A stretch of 64,000 nt of DNA from Candidatus Latescibacterota bacterium (GTDB taxonomy: Bacteria > Latescibacterota > CBDEFO01), in assembly GCA_965237525.1 (NCBI GenBank), contig CBDEFO010000004.1:320001-384000 (forward strand), read 5' to 3'. Shown piece after piece: positions 17,866 through 51,342 of the stretch (position 1 is the first letter of the stretch; each line of letters starts with the position of its first letter). The position numbers and the translations under genes are program-made. The notes under the pieces were generated by a model. That model had not been told where the DNA came from. It saw only the letters and a program-made list of their open reading frames with translations, and did no database searches.

Positions 17866-17903
17866 ACCTGCAGACAGCAAAGCAAGAAAGGTAAGAGCGA
17901 ACA

Positions 17904-17933
17904 GTCAGGGCAGACCTATGCGTCTGCCCTGAC
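17904..17933. repeat. Perfect 12-bp-arm palindrome (REP-like or terminator)
   Basis: GTCAGGGCAGAC-ctatgc-GTCTGCCCTGAC. Related GGGCAGAC-type sequences near 15975-16025 and 44911. Confidence 0.7.
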
Positions 17934-18049
17934 CAATGTGTCAAGCATGAAAATACGGATGTCGGGACAACCACTGGCTGGCTTGTTTCCACATCTCCCG
18001 TGCACTGCCCATGGGTTCGGCGTTACTTTTATACGCTTTTGTATTTATA

Positions 18050-20515: not shown

Positions 20516-21754
20516 ATGGAATCGTCTATTGGGGAATTTGTAAAAGGAAAGAATTTGAAAAGTAGGGTTATGATTGTAGCAGGCGAGGCGTCAGGTGACC
20601 TCCACGGGAGCGGCCTTGTGGGCGAACTTAAGAGAATATCCCCGGATATAGAGATTTTCGGCATAGGAGGCCCCAGGATGGAGGCTGAAGGTGTGAAATT
20701 ACACTATCGTTCAGAGGACATGGCGTTTATGGGATTGGTAGAAGTGATGCGCCATATTCCCTTTGTCCTGAGAGCTCTATCAGATATGCGGAGACTCTTG
20801 CAGGATAAAAAGCCAGATCTTTTGATACTCATAGACTATGCCGGATTTAACCTGAAACTGGCCAATATAGCGCGCAAGAAAGGGATACCTGTGTTGTACT
20901 ACATCCTTCCCAAAGTCTGGGCCTGGGGAGGATGGAGAATCCCTAAGATAGTACAGGTTACTTCCAAAATAGCGGCGGTCTTTCCCTTTGAGCCGGCAAT
21001 CTTCAACGGGCGTGGAGGCGGCGCAGAATTTGTCGGCCATCCCCTGTTAGAAGTAGTAAAGTGCGAATCCACAAAGGCACAATTTCTCTACGACATCGGA
21101 GCCTCCACACGGAGTGGTAGCACCATCATAATCGGCGTCCTTCCCGGAAGCAGAAGACATGAGATCGAGCGCATATTCCCGATTATGCTTGAGGCGTTGA
21201 AAAGTATAGGTGAAAACCTCCAGAATATTCGTGCTCTTGTAGGATGCCTTGACGAGATAGAACCCTCCCTCTACGAGGATATTGCCGCAAAGGAAGAAGT
21301 ACAGGTCAAGTTGCTAAAGGGCAGGACGTACGATCTGATGAGACATTCTGATCTGCTCCTTGTGGGATCCGGAACGGCGACGCTTGAGGCAGCTATTCTG
21401 GGAACACCTATGATTATAATTTACAGTATGTCTTATTTATCCTATATTGTTGCAAAGTTATTTGTGAAAATTCCGCATGTGGGATTGCCGAACATAATCG
21501 CTGGCAAAGAGATAGTCCCAGAGTTTATTCAAAGGGCCGCCGATAGCCAAAGAATAGCTTCCGAATCTATCAGTATCCTCAAAGATAGCAAAAGATATGA
21601 AAAAGTGCGTAGAGACTTGAGCGAAGTTAAAGATAAATTAGGCGGCCCTGGAGCTTCCGTACTAACCGCAGAGATGGCAGCCGACATGATTGGAGTTAAA
21701 AGCAGTAGAGAGGGAGCCGTATTATTAACCGATTCGAAGCGATCGCAAGATTAG
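20516..21754 (+). CDS. lpxB: Lipid-A-disaccharide synthase
   Basis: VAGEASGDLHG, IDYAGFN, VWAW, FVGHPL, LPGSR, SGTATLE, LPNII. True start may be a few codons downstream. Confidence 0.95.
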   Translation: MESSIGEFVKGKNLKSRVMIVAGEASGDLHGSGLVGELKRISPDIEIFGIGGPRMEAEGVKLHYRSEDMAFMGLVEVMRHIPFVLRALSDMRRLLQDKKPDLLILIDYAGFNLKLANIARKKGIPVLYYILPKVWAWGGWRIPKIVQVTSKIAAVFPFEPAIFNGRGGGAEFVGHPLLEVVKCESTKAQFLYDIGASTRSGSTIIIGVLPGSRRHEIERIFPIMLEALKSIGENLQNIRALVGCLDEIEPSLYEDIAAKEEVQVKLLKGRTYDLMRHSDLLLVGSGTATLEAAILGTPMIIIYSMSYLSYIVAKLFVKIPHVGLPNIIAGKEIVPEFIQRAADSQRIASESISILKDSKRYEKVRRDLSEVKDKLGGPGASVLTAEMAADMIGVKSSREGAVLLTDSKRSQD

Positions 21755-21762
21755 ACAGTAGA

Positions 21763-23020
21763 GGTTATTTATCAAATGAAATCGGTGCACTTCTCTTTCG
21801 ATCTTTGATTGATCTTGAATGATAGGTTTTCGACAATCTTTGGTTTCTGTTCTTTTTCAAAATGGATGTATAATTGTTCTTCTTTTAGGTTCCATTCAGC
21901 CAGGACAAAGTAGTTGGTGTAAGAGGAGGGAAGAGATACTTTCTCATTTAGGACATCGATAAAGGCTTTATCTGTCTGTTCTGTGTCCTGTTTGACTTGT
22001 CTGATAAAATAGGTCTTGGGAATGAAATCTTTCTCGTTTGACTTCTCTTGCTTAGGTGGACGGTAGCCGGTGTATCTCTGTGATGAAAGATTAAACCATT
22101 CTAACTTCTGATCAACTTCTTGTAAGCTTTTGAACTGAATTCTGTTCCAGAACTTCCTTGAAAATACAGAATTGTTGCCTTCTATAGATGCTTGAGAAAA
22201 GGGCCTTCTGGGAACGGCAAATATCGGAATCACTTGATTTTTCAAGAGAAACTGCATTGCTTTGCTGACATTCCTTTTACCTGAAACACTGCCAATAGTC
22301 GCCGAGCAATTGTCCACCTTAACGAAATCTGGTTTTTCAAACCTGTCAAAGAAAGACTGACACTTCTCGATAAAGTTAGTTGCTGTTTGACCGTCAACCC
22401 GCCGAAAATACCTTAACTTAGGCTCTTTCTTAAAGGAAAATCCAACGAAGTTGACCGGCTCAGTTCTGCCGGTAAGATACTTTTTACCAATAAAGTCTGA
22501 TTCTAGGACTCTGCCTCCTGAAAGATAGTAAATGGTATACTCTGGATAACAAAGATAACGAGATGCACCCTTGTTTTTACCTTTCTTCCTTCTCTGGGAA
22601 AGTCCTAAATCTGAAAGCATTCTGCCGATAGTCGGCAACGACGGAGGAGGGGTGCTAGAATATCGATTCCTCCATTCTTGTTCAATAACAGTGGCTCCTG
22701 AATAGAACTGATAAGGATCGTCCTCTAAGCTATGGTAAATCTCTTTGATTCTCTGTTCGTCAACTTTAGCCAATTTTCGCCTTTTTCCTTTTGGCCAACC
22801 CCGATTATCCATGGCAAAATCCTGATCCAGAGATTTAGTCCAAGCCGTAACGAAATCATTGGAAACTCTCGCTTGTTTGATAACTTCTCGCTTTGACATT
22901 TCTTTCTTAAAATACATCTCGTTGACTTCTTGTCTTAATACGGCCAATCTCTCTTTGTCCATAGGACTCCGTAGATTAAAGTTAAGACAATCAACTCAAC
23001 TTAATCTACTAATACTCTAA
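21763..23020 (-). mobile_element. IS element A, copy 1 (rve/DDE), left end truncated by IS1182-like insertion
   Basis: Near-identical to 38347-39648. Right TIR intact at 21763; the terminal 44 bp of the left end are missing. Confidence 0.9.
21772..22962 (-). CDS. 396-aa DDE transposase (HTH plus integrase core, IS481/IS3-like)
   Basis: PSLPTIGRML HTH-like segment. Acidic triad in VLESDF / KVDN / SIEGNN. Present in three copies. Confidence 0.8.
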   Translation of the reverse strand: MDKERLAVLRQEVNEMYFKKEMSKREVIKQARVSNDFVTAWTKSLDQDFAMDNRGWPKGKRRKLAKVDEQRIKEIYHSLEDDPYQFYSGATVIEQEWRNRYSSTPPPSLPTIGRMLSDLGLSQRRKKGKNKGASRYLCYPEYTIYYLSGGRVLESDFIGKKYLTGRTEPVNFVGFSFKKEPKLRYFRRVDGQTATNFIEKCQSFFDRFEKPDFVKVDNCSATIGSVSGKRNVSKAMQFLLKNQVIPIFAVPRRPFSQASIEGNNSVFSRKFWNRIQFKSLQEVDQKLEWFNLSSQRYTGYRPPKQEKSNEKDFIPKTYFIRQVKQDTEQTDKAFIDVLNEKVSLPSSYTNYFVLAEWNLKEEQLYIHFEKEQKPKIVENLSFKINQRSKEKCTDFI

Positions 23021-24539
23021 AAGCCTTGTGAAAAACCCTTAGATTCAGAAAGTAGTATAGAACAAGCATTGATAAAGCAGCTCCGATGTATTATATTATG
23101 TTATTGATAATATTATACATGGAGGAAACAATGACCCCACAAGAGCAGGAACAGACAAATCCGGTGTTTCACTATTCTCAGATGGAGGATTTAGTTCCCG
23201 AGGATCATATCCTTCGTCAGATTGATGAGGCAGTTGATTTTTCATTTGTACGAGACGTTGTATCAGATTGTTATTGCCCTGACAATGGCAGACCCGGTAT
23301 TGATCCTGAATTAGTTGTTCGAATGATCCTTATTGGCTATCTGTATAATTTGAGTGAGAATCGGCTCTGTCAGGAAGTGGGGATGCATGCGGCATATCGG
23401 TTGTTTTGTCATCAGACATTTGATGATGCGGTTCCGGATAGGAGCACGATCAACAAGCTTCGCAATCACAAGTGGGCATCCAGTGGGTTGTTTGAACGGA
23501 TAATGCGTCAGGTAGTCCAGTGTTGCATAGATGTCGGTGTTGTGAGCGGTAAACACCTTAGTGTCGACGGCACTCAGATACAAGCTGATGCTTCAGTGAA
23601 AAGTATTGAGCCGATAGAACCCCCTTTTTCTCTTGATGATTATCTCAAGGGAATCGGTTTTGAAGGTGATAAGACAAAGGGTAGGTCCGGGCATCCTCAG
23701 GATAAAGACTTTCATGGTGAAAAGTGGACGAACCAAACACACCGTTCGACTACAGACCCCGACGCGCGCTTATACAGCAAATCGAAGGGCAAAGGGGCTT
23801 TTCTCTCGTTTATGGGCCATGATCTGATCGACACAAAAAGCAGAGTAATCCTTGAGACTCAGGGCACGCAGGCGACAGGGACAGCAGAGCCCGAAAGTGC
23901 CCTTAAGATGGTAGATGACCTTGAAACATACACCATGCCCAAAGACATTCAGACACTTAGTGCCGATACCGGTTACGGTTCTGGTAATTTTATCGCTGAT
24001 GTACTTGACCGGGGAATCATACCCCATATTCCTCTGCGAGCCGATGAGAAGATTGAACCGATTCCTACATGGAAAAACAAGACAAATTCAGCACATATTC
24101 AGGCCGAACGGGATAGAAAAGTGCGAGAGGCGAAAGCCAGAAATCATGCACGGTCTATCTCATTAACAGCTGACTACAAACTCTCCCGGAGACTCCGTAA
24201 ACGCAGTGAACATATCTTTGCTGAAGCCAGGCAACAACACGGTATGGGACGAGCCCGTTATAGAGGACCAGCCTCACTGAATGAACAGTTGAATCTTGTT
24301 GCAACAGTACAGAATCTCAAGAGGCTTGTATCTTTCATAAGAAGGGGGAAAGCGTCTATGTGTGCCCTGTCTGTCAAAGACAGTGCATCCTGTTCTTCAA
24401 ACAGCTCCTGTTCCTTGCTGACCAGAACTCTGATAAGACTATTTTGCTTATTCCACAGCAAAACGATACGATATGCTACTCTTTGACCCATAATCGGCGC
24501 TTCAGACGCTGCCTGGGACATAACTATTTCACAAGGCTT
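23021..24539 (+). mobile_element. IS1182-family element, copy 1 (1519 bp)
   Basis: 13-bp TIRs AAGCCTTGTGAAA/TTTCACAAGGCTT, with CTAA on both sides. Confidence 0.9.
23086..24486 (+). CDS. IS1182-family transposase
   Basis: LVPEDHILR, GRPGIDP, PDRSTI, VDGTQI, STTDPDA, ADTGY, RSEHIFAE. Start may be at 23131. Confidence 0.9.
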   Translation: MYYIMLLIILYMEETMTPQEQEQTNPVFHYSQMEDLVPEDHILRQIDEAVDFSFVRDVVSDCYCPDNGRPGIDPELVVRMILIGYLYNLSENRLCQEVGMHAAYRLFCHQTFDDAVPDRSTINKLRNHKWASSGLFERIMRQVVQCCIDVGVVSGKHLSVDGTQIQADASVKSIEPIEPPFSLDDYLKGIGFEGDKTKGRSGHPQDKDFHGEKWTNQTHRSTTDPDARLYSKSKGKGAFLSFMGHDLIDTKSRVILETQGTQATGTAEPESALKMVDDLETYTMPKDIQTLSADTGYGSGNFIADVLDRGIIPHIPLRADEKIEPIPTWKNKTNSAHIQAERDRKVREAKARNHARSISLTADYKLSRRLRKRSEHIFAEARQQHGMGRARYRGPASLNEQLNLVATVQNLKRLVSFIRRGKASMCALSVKDSASCSSNSSCSLLTRTLIRLFCLFHSKTIRYATL

Positions 24540-37964: not shown

Positions 37965-38330
37965 ATGCCAAGTGACTATCTTCCTATACTTCTGCTTTTG
38001 ATGATAGCTGTCGGCCTTGCCGCTGCTATTCTGCTGACCAGCTATCTTTTCGGACCCAGGAAAAGCGACAGTATTAAGCTTTCACCTTACGAATCAGGCG
38101 TTCCTCCTGTTGGCGATGCAAGGCTCAGATTCTCGGTGAAATTTTATTTTATCGCCATAATATTTATCATATTCGATATAGAAGTGGTCTTTCTATATCC
38201 CTGGGCGGTAGTTTTCAGAAAACTGCTGCCTCAGGGACCATTTATATTTATAGAGATGGCGGCTTTTATCGGCGTACTCTTCATCGGCTTTTTGTACGTA
38301 TGGAGAAAAGGTGGATTGGACTGGGATTAA
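37965..38330 (+). CDS. nuoA: NADH-quinone oxidoreductase subunit A
   Basis: PYESG, FIIFDIEVVFLYPW, KGGLDW. Confidence 0.95.
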   Translation: MPSDYLPILLLLMIAVGLAAAILLTSYLFGPRKSDSIKLSPYESGVPPVGDARLRFSVKFYFIAIIFIIFDIEVVFLYPWAVVFRKLLPQGPFIFIEMAAFIGVLFIGFLYVWRKGGLDWD

Positions 38331-38346
38331 GTAAGTAGACAGTAGT

Positions 38347-39648
38347 GGTTGAATATCAAATGAAATCGGTGCACCTAATTTGATCTTTGTTTAGAGTATT
38401 AGTAGATTAAGTTGAGTTGATTGTCTTAACTTTAATCTACGGAGTCCTATGGACAAAGAGAGATTGGCCGTATTAAGACAAGAAGTCAACGAGATGTATT
38501 TTAAGAAAGAAATGTCAAAGCGAGAAGTTATCAAACAAGCGAGAGTTTCCAATGATTTCGTTACGGCTTGGACTAAATCTCTGGATCAGGATTTTGCCAT
38601 GGATAATCGGGGTTGGCCAAAAGGAAAAAGGCAAAAATTGGCTAAAGTTGACGAACAGAGAATCAAAGAGATTTACCATAGCTTAGAGGACGATCCTTAT
38701 CAGTTCTATTCAGGAGCCACTGTTATTGAACAAGAATGGAGGAATCGATATTCTAGCACCCCTCCTCCGTCGTTGCCGACTATCGGCAGAATGCTTTCAG
38801 ATTTAGGACTTTCCCAGAGAAGGAAGAAAGGTAAAAACAAGGGTGCATCTCGTTATCTTTGTTATCCAGAGTATACCATTTACTATCTTTCAGGAGGCAG
38901 AGTCCTAGAATCAGACTTTATTGGTAAAAAGTATCTTACCGGCAGAACTGAGCCGGTCAACTTCGTTGGATTTTCCTTTAAGAAAGAGCCTAAGTTAAGG
39001 TATTTTCGGCGGGTTGACGGTCAAACAGCAACTAACTTTATCGAGAAGTGTCAGTCTTTCTTTGACAGGTTTGAAAAACCAGATTTCGTTAAGGTGGACA
39101 ATTGCTCGGCGACTATTGGCAGTGTTTCAGGTAAAAGGAATGTCAGCAAAGCAATGCAGTTTCTCTTGAAAAATCAAGTGATTCCGATATTTGCCGTTCC
39201 CAGAAGGCCCTTTTCTCAAGCATCTATAGAAGGCAACAATTCTGTATTTTCAAGGAAGTTCTGGAACAGAATTCAGTTCAAAAGCTTACAAGAAGTTGAT
39301 CAGAAGTTAGAATGGTTTAATCTTTCATCACAGAGATACACCGGCTACCGTCCACCTAAGCAAGAGAAGTCAAACGAGAAAGATTTCATTCCCAAGACCT
39401 ATTTTATCAGACAAGTCAAACAGGACACAGAACAGACAGATAAAGCCTTTATCGATGTCCTAAATGAGAAAGTATCTCTTCCCTCCTCTTACACCAACTA
39501 CTTTGTCCTGGCTGAATGGAACCTAAAAGAAGAACAATTATACATCCATTTTGAAAAAGAACAGAAACCAAAGATTGTCGAAAACCTATCATTCAAGATC
39601 AATCAAAGATCGAAAGAGAAGTGCACCGATTTCATTTGATAAATAACC
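38347..39648 (+). mobile_element. IS element A, copy 2 (1302 bp, complete, 6-bp TSD AGTAGT)
   Basis: Imperfect TIRs GGTTgaaTATCAAATGAAATCGGTGCAC / GTGCACCGATTTCATTTGATAaatAACC. AGTAGT at 38341-38346 and 39649-39654. Confidence 0.92.
38449..39639 (+). CDS. 396-aa DDE transposase
   Basis: One aa different from copy 1. The stop codon lies inside the right TIR. Confidence 0.8.
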   Translation: MDKERLAVLRQEVNEMYFKKEMSKREVIKQARVSNDFVTAWTKSLDQDFAMDNRGWPKGKRQKLAKVDEQRIKEIYHSLEDDPYQFYSGATVIEQEWRNRYSSTPPPSLPTIGRMLSDLGLSQRRKKGKNKGASRYLCYPEYTIYYLSGGRVLESDFIGKKYLTGRTEPVNFVGFSFKKEPKLRYFRRVDGQTATNFIEKCQSFFDRFEKPDFVKVDNCSATIGSVSGKRNVSKAMQFLLKNQVIPIFAVPRRPFSQASIEGNNSVFSRKFWNRIQFKSLQEVDQKLEWFNLSSQRYTGYRPPKQEKSNEKDFIPKTYFIRQVKQDTEQTDKAFIDVLNEKVSLPSSYTNYFVLAEWNLKEEQLYIHFEKEQKPKIVENLSFKINQRSKEKCTDFI

Positions 39649-39734
39649 AGTAGTCAGTAGACGGGGCACCGCCTCCCTTCCCTGTATGCTGTCTCCCGAT
39701 GCTTAGTTTTCCTTAGTTCTGTCCAAGAAATGCT

Positions 39735-41477
39735 ATGGGCGACGATACATCAGCTATAGATAAGATAAACTCCCGATTTTCCGGCGCTCTGATTGAAGTC
39801 GAAGATTTCAGGGATGAGACCACGTTAAACATAAAAAAACAGAGATCCTTCGACCTCCTCAAATTCCTCAAGGAAGACCCCGACCTTCAGTATGACTATC
39901 TAGTGGACCTCTCCTGCGTAGACTACCTCGCGATGGACAGACATCCAAGGTTCTCCGTGGTCTATCATCTCTACTCCTACAAAACAGGACAGAGGCTCAG
40001 AGTTAAAGTTCCCGTTGAAGAATCTGACCCCACTCTTGACTCAGTTTTGCCTATATGGATGGGGGCAATCTGGACTGAAAGGGAAGTCTATGACATGTTC
40101 GGGATCAAGTTCAATGGACATCCGGACTTAAGAAGGATACTGATGCCCTCAGACTTTGAGGGCTATCCTCTAAGAAAGGACTATCCCTTAAGAGGCAGGG
40201 GGGAAAGGGACAGGATAGGCAATCCCGATCCCGGATTTGAGGAGATCTCAATGTCCACAGTCGAAAAAATAGCAGGCGAATCGGAGAACGAAGGCGACAG
40301 GCTCTCCGGTGAGAGGATGGTGTTGAACTTCGGACCGCAGCATCCGGCCACCCATGGGACTTTGAGGCTCGTCCTCGAACTGGACGGCGAAAGGGTGGTC
40401 AACGTTATACCCGACATAGGCTACCTCCACACGGGGTTCGAAAAGCTCGGCGAAAACCTCGACTACAACCAGTTCATCACCTTGACGGACAGGATGAACT
40501 ACATGTCTCCCCTATCCAATAACATCGGATATGCGATAGCTGTGGAGAAACTCTTGGGCATCGAGGTGCCCAAAAGAGCCCAATACATCAGAGTCATCCT
40601 CTATGAACTTTCCAGAATATCCGATCACGTAGTATGGCTCGGAACGGCGGCTCTGGATCTGGGGGCGTTTACGGCCTTTCTGTGGGCCTTCAAAGAGAGA
40701 GAAAAGCTCTACGATATCTTTGATGCCGTTACAGGCACGAGGCTGACCACAAGCTATACGAGAGTCGGAGGGCTATTTGAGGACGTCCCTGAGAACTTCA
40801 AGGATATGGTCGAAGACTTCACAAGACACTTTCCGAAGAGACTCAAAGATATAGATGACCTTTTGACCAAAAATAGAATATGGATCGACAGGACAAAGGG
40901 CATAGGCGTAATCTCAGCCGAAGACGCAATATCCTACAGCCTTACAGGACCCATTCTCAGAGGATCGGGCGTTGAATGGGATATAAGAAAAGCCGAACCC
41001 TATTCTTCTTACGAGGAATTTGAATTTGAGATCCCCACAGGCGACAACGGCGACGCCTACGACCGCTACCTTGTCAGGATGGAGGAGATGATCCAGAGCA
41101 ACAACATAGTAAAACAGGCTATGGAGAATCTACCCGACGGACCAGTCAAAGTACCGGACGCGAAAGTCATACTCCCCGAAAAGGATGAGGTCTATAACAG
41201 GATGGAATCGCTCATTCACCACTTCAAACTTATAATGACAGGGCACGGGATAGAGCCCCCCAAAGCTGAGATCTACTCCAGCACGGAATCTCCCAACGGC
41301 GAACTCGGGTTCTACATAGTCAGCGACGGGAGCGGATTCCCCTACAGAGTAAGAGTAAGACCCCCGTCCTTTATCAACTATCAAGCCTTCCCTCATATGA
41401 TCAAAGGACATATGTACTCAGACATCGTGGCTGTCCTTGGGAGTCTCAACATCATCGCAGGAGAGCTCGATAGATGA
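39735..41477 (+). CDS. nuoCD: NADH-quinone oxidoreductase fused subunit C/D
   Basis: EREVYDMFGI..GHPDLRRIL (C); NFGPQHPATHG, GYLHTGFEK, GELDR (D). Confidence 0.95.
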   Translation: MGDDTSAIDKINSRFSGALIEVEDFRDETTLNIKKQRSFDLLKFLKEDPDLQYDYLVDLSCVDYLAMDRHPRFSVVYHLYSYKTGQRLRVKVPVEESDPTLDSVLPIWMGAIWTEREVYDMFGIKFNGHPDLRRILMPSDFEGYPLRKDYPLRGRGERDRIGNPDPGFEEISMSTVEKIAGESENEGDRLSGERMVLNFGPQHPATHGTLRLVLELDGERVVNVIPDIGYLHTGFEKLGENLDYNQFITLTDRMNYMSPLSNNIGYAIAVEKLLGIEVPKRAQYIRVILYELSRISDHVVWLGTAALDLGAFTAFLWAFKEREKLYDIFDAVTGTRLTTSYTRVGGLFEDVPENFKDMVEDFTRHFPKRLKDIDDLLTKNRIWIDRTKGIGVISAEDAISYSLTGPILRGSGVEWDIRKAEPYSSYEEFEFEIPTGDNGDAYDRYLVRMEEMIQSNNIVKQAMENLPDGPVKVPDAKVILPEKDEVYNRMESLIHHFKLIMTGHGIEPPKAEIYSSTESPNGELGFYIVSDGSGFPYRVRVRPPSFINYQAFPHMIKGHMYSDIVAVLGSLNIIAGELDR

Positions 41478-41959
41478 TGCAGAACAGAGTGGATATCTCC
41501 AAGGAAGCTGAGGAATATCTGCAAAAGATAATATCCAGATACCCCGACAAACAGGCCGCTATGATCCCCGTCCTCCATGTTGTGCAAAATGAAATGGGTG
41601 GCTACCTTACCGTAGACACTCAAAAGTACGTCGCCGATCTTTTAGAGATACCTCCTGTGAGGGTCGCTGCGGTGGTGAGCTTCTATCCTATGCTTAAAAC
41701 GAAGCCCGTGGGTAAATATCATATAAGAGTGTGCAGCACATTAAGCTGTGCGCTTACAGGATCGAGGACATTAGTTCAACATCTGAAAGAGAAACTCAGA
41801 GTGGAGATCAGTGAGGTGACTGGTGATAAGAGGTTCTCGATAGAAAAAGTGGAATGCCTTGCCTCCTGCGGGACCGCCCCGGTGATGCTGGTAAACGAAG
41901 ACCTGTACCAGAATCTGACGGACGAGAACGTGGACGGGATTCTGGATAAATTGGAATGA
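41474..41959 (+). CDS. nuoE: NADH-quinone oxidoreductase subunit E
   Basis: CxxxxC ... CLASC [2Fe-2S] ligands. Confidence 0.92.
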   Translation: MMQNRVDISKEAEEYLQKIISRYPDKQAAMIPVLHVVQNEMGGYLTVDTQKYVADLLEIPPVRVAAVVSFYPMLKTKPVGKYHIRVCSTLSCALTGSRTLVQHLKEKLRVEISEVTGDKRFSIEKVECLASCGTAPVMLVNEDLYQNLTDENVDGILDKLE

Positions 41960-42179
41960 GAAAGATAGACAGCAAACGCCGAGAGGCAGTCTGACTGAGA
42001 TTGGTCTGCTCGCAATAGCAGTTCAGGAGAATCGCAATGACATTGTTTTGTTCTCGGCTTCTGTCATTGCGAGGGGCAGACCCCCAAAGCAATCCCCGAC
42101 CCCCGATTGAATCTATCAGGGGTTCAATCGAGGGCAATCTCAAGGGAAGAGAGGCAGTGCGCCCTCCCTACTGGTTACT

Positions 42180-43481
42180 GGTTATTTATCAAATGAAATC
42201 GGTGCACTTCTCTTTCGATCTTTGATTGATCTTGAATGATAGGTTTTCGACAATCTTTGGTTTCTGTTCTTTTTCAAAATGGATGTATAATTGTTCTTCT
42301 TTTAGGTTCCATTCAGCCAGGACAAAGTAGTTGGTGTAAGAGGAGGGAAGAGATACTTTCTCATTTAGGACATCGATAAAGGCTTTATCTGTCTGTTCTG
42401 TGTCCTGTTTGACTTGTCTGATAAAATAGGTCTTGGGAATGAAATCTTTCTCGTTTGACTTCTCTTGCTTAGGTGGACGGTAGCCGGTGTATCTCTGTGA
42501 TGAAAGATTAAACCATTCTAACTTCTGATCAACTTCTTGTAAGCTTTTGAACTGAATTCTGTTCCAGAACTTCCTTGAAAATACAGAATTGTTGCCTTCT
42601 ATAGATGCTTGAGAAAAGGGCCTTCTGGGAACGGCAAATATCGGAATCACTTGATTTTTCAAGAGAAACTGCATTGCTTTGCTGACATTCCTTTTACCTG
42701 AAACACTGCCAATAGTCGCCGAGCAATTGTCCACCTTAACGAAATCTGGTTTTTCAAACCTGTCAAAGAAAGACTGACACTTCTCGATAAAGTTAGTTGC
42801 TGTTTGACCGTCAACCCGCCGAAAATACCTTAACTTAGGCTCTTTCTTAAAGGAAAATCCAACGAAGTTGACCGGCTCAGTTCTGCCGGTAAGATACTTT
42901 TTACCAATAAAGTCTGATTCTAGGACTCTGCCTCCTGAAAGATAGTAAATGGTATACTCTGGATAACAAAGATAACGAGATGCACCCTTGTTTTTACCTT
43001 TCTTCCTTCTCTGGGAAAGTCCTAAATCTGAAAGCATTCTGCCGATAGTCGGCAACGACGGAGGAGGGGTGCTAGAATATCGATTCCTCCATTCTTGTTC
43101 AATAACAGTGGCTCCTGAATAGAACTGATAAGGATCGTCCTCTAAGCTATGGTAAATCTCTTTGATTCTCTGTTCGTCAACTTTAGCCAATTTTCGCCTT
43201 TTTCCTTTTGGCCAACCCCGATTATCCATGGCAAAATCCTGATCCGGAGATTTAGTCCAAGCCGTAACGAAATCATTGGAAACTCTCGCTTGTTTGATAA
43301 CTTCTCGCTTTGACATTTCTTTCTTAAAATACATCTCGTTGACTTCTTGTCTTAATACGGCCAATCTCTCTTTGTCCATAGGACTCCGTAGATTAAAGTT
43401 AAGACAATCAACTCAACTTAATCTACTAATACTCTAAACAAAGATCAAATTAGGTGCACCGATTTCATTTGATATTCAACC
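42180..43481 (-). mobile_element. IS element A, copy 3 (1302 bp, both TIRs, no matching TSD)
   Basis: Same TIRs as copy 2. Flanks GTTACT / GGTAAT. Confidence 0.92.
42189..43379 (-). CDS. 396-aa DDE transposase
   Basis: One aa different from copy 1 (KSPD). Confidence 0.8.
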   Translation of the reverse strand: MDKERLAVLRQEVNEMYFKKEMSKREVIKQARVSNDFVTAWTKSPDQDFAMDNRGWPKGKRRKLAKVDEQRIKEIYHSLEDDPYQFYSGATVIEQEWRNRYSSTPPPSLPTIGRMLSDLGLSQRRKKGKNKGASRYLCYPEYTIYYLSGGRVLESDFIGKKYLTGRTEPVNFVGFSFKKEPKLRYFRRVDGQTATNFIEKCQSFFDRFEKPDFVKVDNCSATIGSVSGKRNVSKAMQFLLKNQVIPIFAVPRRPFSQASIEGNNSVFSRKFWNRIQFKSLQEVDQKLEWFNLSSQRYTGYRPPKQEKSNEKDFIPKTYFIRQVKQDTEQTDKAFIDVLNEKVSLPSSYTNYFVLAEWNLKEEQLYIHFEKEQKPKIVENLSFKINQRSKEKCTDFI

Positions 43482-43500
43482 GGTAATATTTACTTTTTTA

Positions 43501-44808
43501 GTGCATATGCCAGAAAAGAGAATTCTTCTCAAAGATTTTGACGTCCCCAACATACAGGATATAGACGTCTATATAGAGCACGGCGGATACAAAGCCCTCG
43601 AAAAGGCTTTGAGCAAGATGACCCCCGACCAGGTCATAGAGGAAGTGGATAGATCTAAGCTCAAAGGGAGAGGCGGCGCCTGGTTTGCGACCGGCTTAAA
43701 ATGGAATTTTATGCCCAAAGAGCCCAAGGTCCCCTCGTATCTGTGTGTAAATGCGGACGAGAGCGAACCGGGGTCGTTCAAGGACCGAGTCCTTATGGAG
43801 GGCGATCCTCACCTTACTATCGAAGGCTCAATAATCGCATCCTACGCTATGAGGGTCAGCACCTGCTACTACTATATACGCGGGGAGATGTTCAACACGA
43901 TAGAGCTGATAGAAAAGTGCATAGAAGAGGCCTACGAGAGGGGATTTCTCGGCAAGAATATCTTTGACACGGATTACAGCTTGGATATGTACGTCCATCT
44001 CGGAGCAGGGGCGTACATCTGCGGCGAGGAGACGGGGCTTATGGAGTCTTTAGAGGGGAAAAGGCCATACCCACGAATAAAACCCCCATTTCCAGCCCAA
44101 CGGGGCATATTCGGATGTCCCACCACGGTGAACAATGTGATGACTCTGGCCTATGTACCTCACATAGTCAATAACGGAGCAGATTGGTTCAGGGGAATCG
44201 GTGCACAAGAGACGCCAGGGACATCTGTGTTCTGTGTAAGTGGGCATGTAAAGAGACCGGGGATATACGAGCTTGAGATGGGCACTCCTCTAAGGGAGAT
44301 AATCTACGGCTACGCCGGCGGTATAAGGGACGGGCATGAACTGAAAGCTGTCCTGCCTGGGGGATCTTCCTATCCGCCTTTGGGACCCGATGATCTGGAT
44401 GTGGAGATGACGCCGGAGTCCTTTTCGCTGGGTGGTGGGTCTGTGATGAGCCACATCGGGACGGGTGCAGTTATAGTGATGGACGAGACGGTCTGTATGG
44501 TGGACGCTCTTTTGAACATTATGAAGTTTTATGCTCACGAGTCATGCGGTCAGTGTACTCCGTGCAGAGAAGGTGCGCCCTGGATAAGAAACATAGCTGA
44601 GAGAATCGAAAAGGGAAAGGGCCGGATGGAAGATATGGATTTAATAGTCGATGTAGCGGAAAACGTATGCGGATTTATGAAGCTCCCCTTCACAACGGTC
44701 TGCGCTTTCGGAGCGGCGTTTGCCTGGCCTTCGGCTGGATTTATCCTCAAGTTCAAAGACGAGTTCCAAGAGCACGTAAAACTGGGCAAGTGCCCCTTTA
44801 ATAATTAG
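43501..44808 (+). CDS. nuoF: NADH-quinone oxidoreductase subunit F
   Basis: GRGGA, NADESEPG, GAGAYICGEET, ESCGQCTPCREG. Confidence 0.95.
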   Translation: MHMPEKRILLKDFDVPNIQDIDVYIEHGGYKALEKALSKMTPDQVIEEVDRSKLKGRGGAWFATGLKWNFMPKEPKVPSYLCVNADESEPGSFKDRVLMEGDPHLTIEGSIIASYAMRVSTCYYYIRGEMFNTIELIEKCIEEAYERGFLGKNIFDTDYSLDMYVHLGAGAYICGEETGLMESLEGKRPYPRIKPPFPAQRGIFGCPTTVNNVMTLAYVPHIVNNGADWFRGIGAQETPGTSVFCVSGHVKRPGIYELEMGTPLREIIYGYAGGIRDGHELKAVLPGGSSYPPLGPDDLDVEMTPESFSLGGGSVMSHIGTGAVIVMDETVCMVDALLNIMKFYAHESCGQCTPCREGAPWIRNIAERIEKGKGRMEDMDLIVDVAENVCGFMKLPFTTVCAFGAAFAWPSAGFILKFKDEFQEHVKLGKCPFNN

Positions 44809-49823: not shown

Positions 49824-51342
49824 AAGCCTTGTGAAATAGTTATGTCCCAGGCAGCGTGTGAAGCGCCGATTATGGGTCAAAGAGTAGCATATCGTATCGT
49901 TTTGCTGTGGAATAAGCAAAATAGTCTTATCAGAGTTCTGGTCAGCAAGGAACAGGAGCTGTTTGAAGAACAGGATGCACTGTCTTTGACAGACAGGGCA
50001 CACATAGACGCTTTCCCCCTTCTTATGAAAGATACAAGCCTCTTGAGATTCTGTACTGTTGCAACAAGATTCAACTGTTCATTCAGTGAGGCTGGTCCTC
50101 TATAACGGGCTCGTCCCATACCGTGTTGTTGCCTGGCTTCAGCAAAGATATGTTCACTGCGTTTACGGAGTCTCCGGGAGAGTTTGTAGTCAGCTGTTAA
50201 TGAGATAGACCGTGCATGATTTCTGGCTTTCGCCTCTCGCACTTTTCTATCCCGTTCGGCCTGAATATGTGCTGGATTTGTCTTGTTTTTCCATGTAGGA
50301 ATCGGTTCAATCTTCTCATCGGCTCGCAGAGGAATATGGGGTATGATTCCCCGGTCAAGTACATCAGCGATAAAATTACCAGAACCGTAACCGGTATCGG
50401 CACTAAGTGTCTGAATGTCTTTGGGCATGGTGTATGTTTCAAGGTCATCTACCATCTTAAGGGCACTTTCGGGCTCTGCTGTCCCTGTCGCCTGCGTGCC
50501 CTGAGTCTCAAGGATTACTCTGCTTTTTGTGTCGATCAGATCATGGCCCATAAACGAGAGAAAAGCCCCTTTGCCCTTCGATTTGCTGTATAAGCGCGCG
50601 TCGGGGTCTGTAGTCGAACGGTGTGTTTGGTTCGTCCACTTTTCACCATGAAAGTCTTTATCCTGAGGATGCCCGGACCTACCCTTTGTCTTATCACCTT
50701 CAAAACCGATTCCCTTGAGATAATCATCAAGAGAAACAGGGGGTTCTATCGGCTCAATACTTTTCACTGAAGCATCAGCTTGTATCTGAGTGCCGTCGAC
50801 ACTAAGGTGTTTACCGCTCACAAGACCGACATCTATGCAACACTGGACTACCTGACGCATTATCCGTTCAAACAACCCACTGGATGCCCACTTGTGATTG
50901 CGAAGCTTGTTGATCGTGCTCCTATCCGGAACCGCATCATCAAATGTCTGATGACAAAACAACCGATATGCCGCATGCATCCCCACTTCCTGACAGAGCC
51001 GATTCTCACTCAAATTATACAGATAGCCAATAAGGATCATTCGAACAACTAATTCAGGATCAATACCGGGTCTGCCATTGTCAGGGCAATAACAATCTGA
51101 TACAACGTCTCGTACAAATGAAAAATCAACTGCCTCATCAATCTGACGAAGGATATGATCCTCGGGAACTAAATCCTCCATCTGAAAATAGTGAAACATC
51201 GGATTTGTCTGTTCCTGCTTTTGTGGGGTCATTGTTTCCTCCATGTATAATATTATCAATAACATAATATAATACATCGGAGCTGCTTTATCAATGCTTG
51301 TTTTATACTATTTTCTGAATCTAAGGGTTTTTCACAAGGCTT
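49824..51342 (-). mobile_element. IS1182-family element, copy 2 (1519 bp, TSD TTAG)
   Basis: Same 13-bp TIRs. TTAG at 49820-49823 and 51343-51346. Confidence 0.92.
49877..51277 (-). CDS. IS1182-family transposase
   Basis: Near-identical to 23086-24486. Confidence 0.9.
   Translation of the reverse strand: MYYIMLLIILYMEETMTPQKQEQTNPMFHYFQMEDLVPEDHILRQIDEAVDFSFVRDVVSDCYCPDNGRPGIDPELVVRMILIGYLYNLSENRLCQEVGMHAAYRLFCHQTFDDAVPDRSTINKLRNHKWASSGLFERIMRQVVQCCIDVGLVSGKHLSVDGTQIQADASVKSIEPIEPPVSLDDYLKGIGFEGDKTKGRSGHPQDKDFHGEKWTNQTHRSTTDPDARLYSKSKGKGAFLSFMGHDLIDTKSRVILETQGTQATGTAEPESALKMVDDLETYTMPKDIQTLSADTGYGSGNFIADVLDRGIIPHIPLRADEKIEPIPTWKNKTNPAHIQAERDRKVREAKARNHARSISLTADYKLSRRLRKRSEHIFAEARQQHGMGRARYRGPASLNEQLNLVATVQNLKRLVSFIRRGKASMCALSVKDSASCSSNSSCSLLTRTLIRLFCLFHSKTIRYATL

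Follow-up and report, generated by a model that had tools for sequence, protein, structure and literature searches.

We consider it probable that the window, by which we mean the whole stretch of 64,000 nucleotides analysed here, carries a recently expanded single-gene DDE insertion sequence (IS) with GGTT ends, related to IS481 and IS21, that makes a 6-bp duplication at targets of the form TA-N5-TA-N5-TA. In this reading, tandem heptamers with a TA are frequent sites, likely as a by-product of the target preference and of survival outside genes, and the element likely moves through a circle with a target-like junction. The evidence comes from the ends, the duplication length, the target consensus, the share of insertions in arrays, the absence of a detectable repeat effect beyond the consensus, the conservation of these features across a family, and altered duplications at sites whose empty form is known. 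The element is real, and its link to heptamer repeats is real but derivative.

The element and its copies

Copy 2 in the window is complete and 1302 bp long, starts with GGTT and ends with AACC. Its left and right 28-bp inverted repeats are identical at 25 of 28 positions. The features referred to below are:

38347..39648, plus strand: complete IS copy 2, 1302 bp (from the sequence and the genome-wide comparison)
38347..38374, plus strand: left inverted repeat of copy 2, 28 bp, starting GGTT
39621..39648, minus strand: right inverted repeat of copy 2, 28 bp
In the right repeat, 7 bp from the end: outward TTGATA hexamer, read by eye; the promoter scan did not call it
38449..39639, plus strand: 396-aa transposase ORF of copy 2, predicted HTH-HTH-RNase H core-beta-barrel
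38341..38346, plus strand: target duplication AGTAGT, left copy, 6 bp
39649..39654, plus strand: target duplication AGTAGT, right copy, 6 bp
38334..38340, plus strand: AGTAGAC unit 3 bp after the nuoA stop, giving the upstream TA of the target
39649..39695, plus strand: AGTAGTC-AGTAGAC units and GGG...CCC repeat module
42180..43481, minus strand: complete IS copy 3, between nuoE and nuoF
42174..42179, plus strand: copy 3 flank GTTACT; base 5 unlike the empty site
43482..43487, plus strand: copy 3 flank GGTAAT; base 2 unlike the empty site
21763..23020, minus strand: IS copy 1 minus its first 44 bp; transposase ORF 21772-22962 intact
21752..21762, plus strand: heptamer-type flank of copy 1
23021..24539, strand not given: IS1182/IS5-like element; 466-aa transposase 23086-24486; 4-bp YTAR duplication
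Elsewhere in the host genome, decayed right-end remnants: C8:1336076-1336344, C8:1566019-1566205, C8:34903-35345, C3:106719-106992, C4:430427-430499

The first-pass annotation had described the ends of copy 2 and its perfect AGTAGT duplication correctly. Excising the copy together with one AGTAGT gives AGTAGAC-AGTAGTC-AGTAGAC-GGGGCACC, 3 bp past the nuoA stop codon, and so restores the heptamer units as claimed. It had also counted three 1302-bp copies, all of them in AGTAGAC repeats. The length holds for copies 2 and 3 but not for copy 1, which has lost its first 44 bp and with them the left inverted repeat; an IS1182/IS5-like element occupies that place. As for the repeats, copy 2 lies within them and copy 1 has a heptamer-type flank, adjoining TAGACAGTAGA as described; copy 3 does adjoin CCCTACTGGTTACT, but it is outside both AGTAGAC masks and its flanks GTTACT and GGTAAT form no perfect duplication. 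Copies 2 and 3 lie between nuoA and nuoCD and between nuoE and nuoF with all genes intact, so two copies did enter the nuo run without gene damage, and the three transposases compared differ by the 1–2 aa that had been reported. A promoter scan across copy 2 gave 3 sites against 3.0 expected, none of them at the element ends.

A relative of the same genus (G001) is 96–98% identical to the host over the nuo region and contains only remnants of this IS and no intact copy. Its empty site for copy 1 has a TTAG target of the IS1182/IS5-like element 2 bp from the target of the focal IS, and the left end of copy 1 was therefore likely deleted between two TTAG sites. In the nuo run itself (window 37965-41477), nuoA is followed by a fused nuoCD with no nuoB between them, likewise in G001, and two Oxidored_q6 (NuoB-type) genes are found elsewhere on contig C8. 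A second IS1182/IS5-like ORF is present at 49877-51277 of the window.

The host genome (Candidatus Latescibacterota; G000) contains 49 copies of the focal IS with both ends and 3 lone right ends. Inserts of ≈1.52 kb, one or two per copy, are present in 5 of the 49; in several copies the IS1182/IS5-like element sits at a TTAG close to position 45 of the focal IS, giving nested units of 2825 and 4348 bp. The 44 uninterrupted copies vary at 31 columns with mosaic SNP patterns, and recombination between copies thus occurs. SNP lineages were tried as a means of tying imperfect copies to donors and dropped, the mosaic haplotypes being uninformative. Copy 49 (C8:2012184-2013483) has five private changes in columns 1269-1277, outside the 28-bp repeat, and its right end matches left-end positions 8-46 at 97% by BLAST, which suggests conversion between its own two ends. 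The decayed right ends listed above, at 70–86% identity and some with NNTANN flanks, are by their sequence remnants of older variants, from earlier waves of the IS family.

Orthologous stretches of the two genomes are 93–98% identical, yet the genomes are heavily rearranged, and in G001 a different element, IS481/IS3-like, has expanded (at least 15 identical matches). Depth ratios over window 41600-44100 point to widely differing copy numbers of this IS in related strains, about 9 in run X18, 25–40 in X1 and X16, and more than 60 in X15, although contig depth is not the same as copy number.

Target preference and the host heptamer repeats

Target duplications are exactly 6 bp in 28 of the 49 copies, and none of the 49 has one of 4, 5 or 7–10 bp. 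The target is a spaced palindrome, TA-N5-TA-N5-TA, with TA at the centre of the duplication, A four positions before it and T four positions after it; the outermost bases, T before the outer A and A after the outer T, are weaker. Left flanks have T at −4 (49/49), A at −3 (48/49), A at −10 (46/49) and T at −11 (37/49), and right flanks have T3 and A4 (50/52 each), T10 (44/52) and A11 (27/52). Copies outside the repeats (n = 32) obey the same rule (A−10 in 30/32, T10 in 25/32). With this spacing any tandem heptamer that contains TA fits the target.

The host is rich in such heptamers. Tandem units that deviate from AGTAGAC at no more than one position make up 221 arrays, as against 18–21 in two base shuffles. 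The 12-mer AGTAGACAGTAG occurs 138 times in the host and 124 times in G001, and 39 other genomes from the phylum have it 0–1 times each. The units often run into a GGG...CCC stem and an inverted run, although hairpin folding of four repeat modules from the window was weak (z −0.05 to −2.1). The module at the site of copy 2 is missing at the orthologous G001 junction, and the repeat itself is therefore labile. Dispersed heptamer repeats have been described in several phyla (PMC4679880, in the excerpts used). We do not call the array a REP, since no Y1_Tnp/RAYT match was found in either genome and neither GTAGAC nor a heptamer was found in the main text of the GTAG-REP paper. Besides the heptamer arrays, intergenic mosaics of other repeat modules were seen at window 42085-42179 and 17866-17990, made up of a CCCCGAT...ATCGGGG stem, GTCATTGCGAG...GCAATC and GGGCAGAC...GTCTGCCC.

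Insertions in AGTAGAC arrays numbered 12 of 49 with a first mask, and 15 (strict) or 17 (lenient) of 49 on a reconstructed genome, far above chance for arrays that cover 0.12–0.29% of positions. The raw odds of array sites were 131-fold over other TA sites. We fitted a conditional-logit model to 226,370 TA sites and 41 simple insertions, with the genome background included and 8 rearranged or deleted junctions excluded. Target preference alone predicted 23–27% of insertions in arrays, with 12/41 observed; an extra repeat term of 1.35–1.7-fold was not significant (p 0.33–0.58), and the intergenic term was about 2-fold. When the model was trained on non-repeat sites only, 19–23% were predicted in arrays against the same 12/41 (p 0.07–0.22). 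With a plain weight matrix built on 27 sites outside the repeats, the prediction was 6–11%, or 13–24% among intergenic sites, as against 15–17/49 observed; this leaves an apparent 2-fold array excess that the conditional logit with background removes. A true but modest array preference of up to 2-fold may exist and is compatible with 41 sites. The link to the arrays is thus likely a matter of the target consensus, a by-product of the TA rule, and not of homing to one repeat.

The same spacing is seen in relatives of the element. We examined 87 family loci (6 of 8 and 80 from two locus sets, and 1 from viral contigs), which include metagenomic loci, near-duplicates and short-read contigs, so that two flanks may stem from different copies. 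Their distinct flanks (70 left, 68 right) show the TA spacing of the host element. Period-7 arrays were present in 19 of 134 family half-sites versus 0.2 in column shuffles (maximum 3) and consist of many unrelated units, while no arrays were found in these half-sites at periods 5, 6, 8 or 9.

The first-pass annotation had proposed that the host repeat serves the element as a safe harbour into which it homes. For this to hold, the transposase or a host repeat-binding protein would recognise the AGTAGAC array or its hairpin module, as might be suspected from 15–17 of 49 insertions in so small a part of the genome, from a repeat term whose point estimate is above 1 in every fit, and from the REP-targeting ISs already described (PMC1525189, in the excerpts used). 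Yet 32–34 of the 49 copies lie elsewhere, 8 of them well inside ORFs (at least 95 nt from both ends of an ORF predicted with a simple purpose-made gene finder), array insertions occur in both orientations relative to the repeat, the repeat term is not significant, and relatives use unrelated heptamers, for instance TTAGAAA-, GGTAGTC-, AGTACTG- and ACTAGGC-type units. We find true repeat homing quite improbable. The enrichment that would go with it is there over all copies but is largely explained by the modelled target preference, and the short target consensus that had been named as the counter-explanation largely accounts for the sites. What survives is the heptamer link as such, because the consensus has a 7-bp period, and this link recurs across the family.

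A broader version is that the spaced target evolved as an adaptation to common intergenic TA-heptamer arrays as a class and is no accident. The 7-bp TA spacing is kept at 50–70% protein identity, the 19 of 134 half-sites in period-7 arrays fit such a history, and heptamer repeats are dispersed in several phyla (PMC4679880, as above); on the other hand, the element's own end junction has the same spacing, which explains it without selection, and most family flanks are not arrays. We regard this adaptation as possible but rather unlikely. That the IS itself makes the arrays as insertion-excision footprints, each a 6-bp duplication plus one terminal base, seems extremely unlikely. The host unit does read as AGTAGA followed by C, and the decayed older relatives in both genomes leave room for an ancient origin, but G001 has no intact copy and nevertheless nearly as many matches to the 12-mer as the host, and many family heptamers end neither in C nor in G.

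Imperfect duplications and the proposed pathway

The two copies of the duplication differ at 21 of the 49 sites. Eight of these were set aside as rearranged or deleted, three of them without TA on one side. Sites 3 and 7 show a reciprocal flank swap, the left flank of site 18 joins the right flank of site 24 in G001, and site 41 is not contiguous; going by these junctions, they are rearrangements. The G001 empty sites at sites 1, 13, 16 and 23 point to simple insertions with an element-proximal base changed. At site 16 the empty sequence is AGTAGG and the left copy AGTAGA, and at site 1, inside a gene, the right copy is changed at base 1. Site 13 is copy 3 of the window, for which G001 has an empty ATTAAT (plus strand) where the copies read GTTACT and GGTAAT; run X18 joins across this copy skipping 1308 = 1302 + 6 bases, and both odd junctions are present in contigs of runs X15 and X16. 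At site 23, the G001 codons for D-Y-V-I are kept only by a combination of left bases 1–4 and right bases 5–6 (hand reading).

Counted manually, polarised changes were proximal in 8 cases and distal in 2. The distal base is also unlike G001 at sites 17 and 18/24, and sites 6, 31 and 35 are ambiguous. Sites 21, 22 and 45 had no usable G001 orthologue, and the imperfect sites 3, 7, 19, 25, 26 and 36 no resolved empty site. Synteny from repeat positions was tried and given up because of its noise: of the first 20 regions predicted in G001, most missed their sites.

Pairs with bases 1–4 equal and 5–6 different numbered 6 against 1.8 for random hybrids (p 0.003). In the family set the count for this one-sided class was 10 as compared with 5.9 (p 0.06); of 69 pairs, 36 are unlike on both sides, a pattern to be expected from chimeric short-read contigs. 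At the 13 non-rearranged host sites, none of the 20 differing positions falls in the central TA (hand count; (2/3)^20 = 3e-4), a figure conditional on setting aside the three sites without TA. The predicted donor 6-mer was found as a perfect duplication in 3 of 5 two-sided cases, with 44% expected by chance, and thus lends no support. Missing repair genes were considered as a cause and rejected, since open frames for MutS and a Pol I 5'-nuclease domain are present. Sites 6 (C3:248286) and 38 (C8:792009) share 10 identical bases in their left flanks, and site 6 has about 9 extra bases at the left flank relative to G001. From the sequence, this possibly reflects a longer carried donor flank, or else chance (≈0.1–0.25 such pairs expected, by estimate).

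The effect is not special to the focal IS, as an unrelated IS1182-like element shows imperfect duplications too. This element is present as 133 complete copies of 1519 bp with a 466-aa protein and a 4-bp YTAR duplication, and 33 of the 133 pairs are imperfect; for four of these the G001 site is contiguous, and the proximal base is changed in the same way. Among its imperfect duplications the proximal base tends to be C on the right and G on the left (23 vs 7, counts not independent). The cause therefore likely lies in repair or recombination shared within this host.

We think it likely that the imperfect duplications are donor bases retained in repair. A serious rival and a real possibility, though we give it less than even weight, is that existing copies underwent gene conversion or crossing-over that ran 1–2 bases into similar flanks. 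Recombination of this kind fits the mosaic SNPs, the reciprocal swap at sites 3 and 7, the continuity of the left flank of site 18 with the right flank of site 24 in G001, and the G/C-biased effect in the IS1182-like element, again with its dependent counts of 23 and 7. It would, however, require strands to re-anneal over 2–4 bp of homologous flank at sites outside the repeats, for example 1 and 23. Errors of assembly polishing, or else error-prone gap filling, might be suspected as well. Polishing errors are expected at repeat boundaries, and the changes do cluster there. Either is nevertheless very improbable, given that contigs of X15 and X16 span both junctions of copy 3 with no listed difference (one site, and X15 may be the source sample) and that the central TA is spared at the 13 non-rearranged sites to the conditional degree given above.

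We propose a pathway in which the transposase itself would read the outer A/T pair 4 bp beyond the duplication together with the central TA; direct reading is suggested because no IstB or other helper gene is present. One end would then attack 6 bp beyond the other end, and replication would release a circle. The circle junction would be TAACC-NNTANN-GGTT, in which the TAs are spaced as in the target. Ends joined over a 6-bp spacer and sharing the target pattern would suit a copy-out/paste-in route with a donor-flank spacer, which has been described for ISCth4 and IS1202 members (PMC7780238, bioRxiv 2022.12.17.520857, both in excerpt). After integration the 5' ends would still carry donor bases, which could pair within the 6-nt gaps by way of TA. 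These bases might sometimes escape removal, be ligated into the gaps and then be fixed by mismatch repair or replication, and the outcome would be duplications that are unlike next to the element but keep the central TA. No end-to-end circle joint was seen in the contigs of four runs, and contigs drop rare forms.

A bolder version, which we put forward only as an unlikely one, is that this is a widespread IS family, as yet undescribed, with a DDE transposase that recognises a 16-bp spaced palindrome resembling the joined ends of its own element. It would hence be a general parasite of bacterial heptamer repeats, and the circle would integrate as a quasi site-specific exchange over a 6-bp overlap that leaves donor "coupling" bases.

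Transposase, wider family and relation to known systems

The first-pass annotation called the protein an rve/DDE transposase of 396 aa. The size and the DDE character stand, with D156, D217 and E261 invariant in 36 homologues, but the match to Pfam rve_3 is weak (E 0.07). NCBIfam gave IS481 at 43.6 bits (NF033577, cut-off 224) and IS21 at 32.1 bits (cut-off 160); IS481 is the best NCBIfam match for the query and for most of 27 homologues, which reach at most 79 bits against its profile. The AlphaFold model (pLDDT 82.5) predicts two helical domains, an RNase H core and a C-terminal beta-barrel. Its best Foldseek match is IstA (E 3e-11, 16% identity, TM 0.31), followed by TnsB, and a PDB sequence search gave no match at E 1. 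The structure library behind Foldseek may contain no IS481 structure. The nearest sampled proteins are IS481 members of 380–395 aa (E 4e-13 to 1e-11). A single ORF fills the 1302 bp and the relatives are 1087–1376 bp long, with no IstB.

Homologous proteins number 855 at E ≤ 0.001 (90% cluster level), with bacterial and archaeal labels, and form 517 clusters at 50% identity. The best 120 of the 855, the query's own cluster aside, have 61–74% identity and are nearly all unnamed; homologue labels are hypothetical or unnamed, with one "transposase". An inverted-repeat pair was found in 80 of the 87 family loci, spanning 1283–1376 bp except for one of 1087 bp. The relatives start with GGTT at 80/80 left and 78/80 right ends (consensus GGTTA..TGCCAAATGAAA). 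One family locus lay in viral contigs, and tblastn at E 0.01 gave no match in 72,556 plasmids.

In quick unrooted trees, 27 family rows fell on one side of a branch from 16 IS481-like and 9–10 IS21 rows, with SH-aLRT 99 without one long truncated IS21 row and 63 with it; the IS481-like and IS21 rows all came from the host phylum, and weak alignment led to the removal of 8 of 34 candidate loci. The family is, from its sequences, an apparently unclassified IS481/IS21-related group that we file under neither and that would work like a helper-free element of the IS481/IS21 type. The suggestion of an unclassified IS group is upheld by scores below both cut-offs, GGTT instead of TGT ends, the absence of IstB and a branch of its own in the quick tree, a comparison made with NCBIfam profiles and host-phylum rows. 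Titles and abstracts, mostly from open journals, mentioned no IS group with GGTT ends and this target, nor donor bases in the duplications of a DDE IS. The literature compared included PMC10045372, bioRxiv 2022.12.17.520857, PMC7780238, PMC4679880, PMC3733652, PMC10122671 and PMC1525189; the supplementary tables on IS1202 could bear on classification.

An abundant IS group that annotation pipelines call hypothetical is now defined by its ends, size, duplication and target rule. With a single gene, no IstB and a 16-bp spaced target, its transposase offers a compact model of how sequence directs the choice of target. A periodic consensus can give rise to "repeat targeting", and this is a control that other claims of repeat homing should pass. 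The imperfect duplications, if donor-derived, would be a record of the fate of donor flanks in gap repair, and donor-to-target paths would be traceable in genomes.

IS481 elements have a single ORF, ≈1.3 kb and mostly 6-bp duplications (PMC10045372, in part). The focal IS resembles them in these respects (here with 28/49 exact) and in its HTH and integrase-type DDE core. However, IS481 ends begin with TGT (bioRxiv 2022.12.17.520857, in part), as also seen in the sampled IS481 elements L177, L180 and L181, while the ends here are GGTT, the score is 43.6 bits against a cut-off of 224, and the family has its own branch in the quick tree. IstA has an HTH-HTH-DDE-beta-barrel layout, and IS21 needs IstB for integration (PMC10122671, in part). 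The predicted layout here is the same, IstA is the top Foldseek match of the model, and the D217–E261 spacing of 44 is close to the ≈47 of three sampled IstA. Unlike IS21, whose ends are multiply repeated with a terminal CA, the focal IS has no IstB, one 28-bp repeat per end and GGTT..AACC without terminal CA, and it scores ≈32 bits against 160.

IS1202 is IS481-related, with 5–6-bp duplications, circles with a spacer from one donor flank, and site-selective members (bioRxiv 2022.12.17.520857, in part). The relation to IS481, the duplication class of 5–6 bp and the site selectivity are shared. IS1202 is further characterised by TGT ends, an extra DD motif, Q at E+7, a helical C-terminus and xrs targets, whereas the focal IS has GGTT ends, S268 at E+7 and a beta-rich C-terminus.

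REP-targeting ISs, among them IS1397 and IS621, share with the focal IS the insertion into a host intergenic repeat family. ISPsy8, ISPa11, ISPpu9/10 and ISRm19/22 likewise insert into host intergenic repeats (PMC1525189, in part). In contrast to these, only a third of the copies here are in the repeat, which is a tandem heptamer; the association is a consequence of a spaced consensus, and neither genome has a Y1/RAYT match.

Tn916 differs in its enzyme, a tyrosine recombinase that makes no target duplication, from the DDE element described here with its 28 of 49 exact duplications. Its coupling sequences are donor bases that pass through a 6-bp heteroduplex, and in this outcome, donor-site bases beside the element at its new site, the two systems would be alike.
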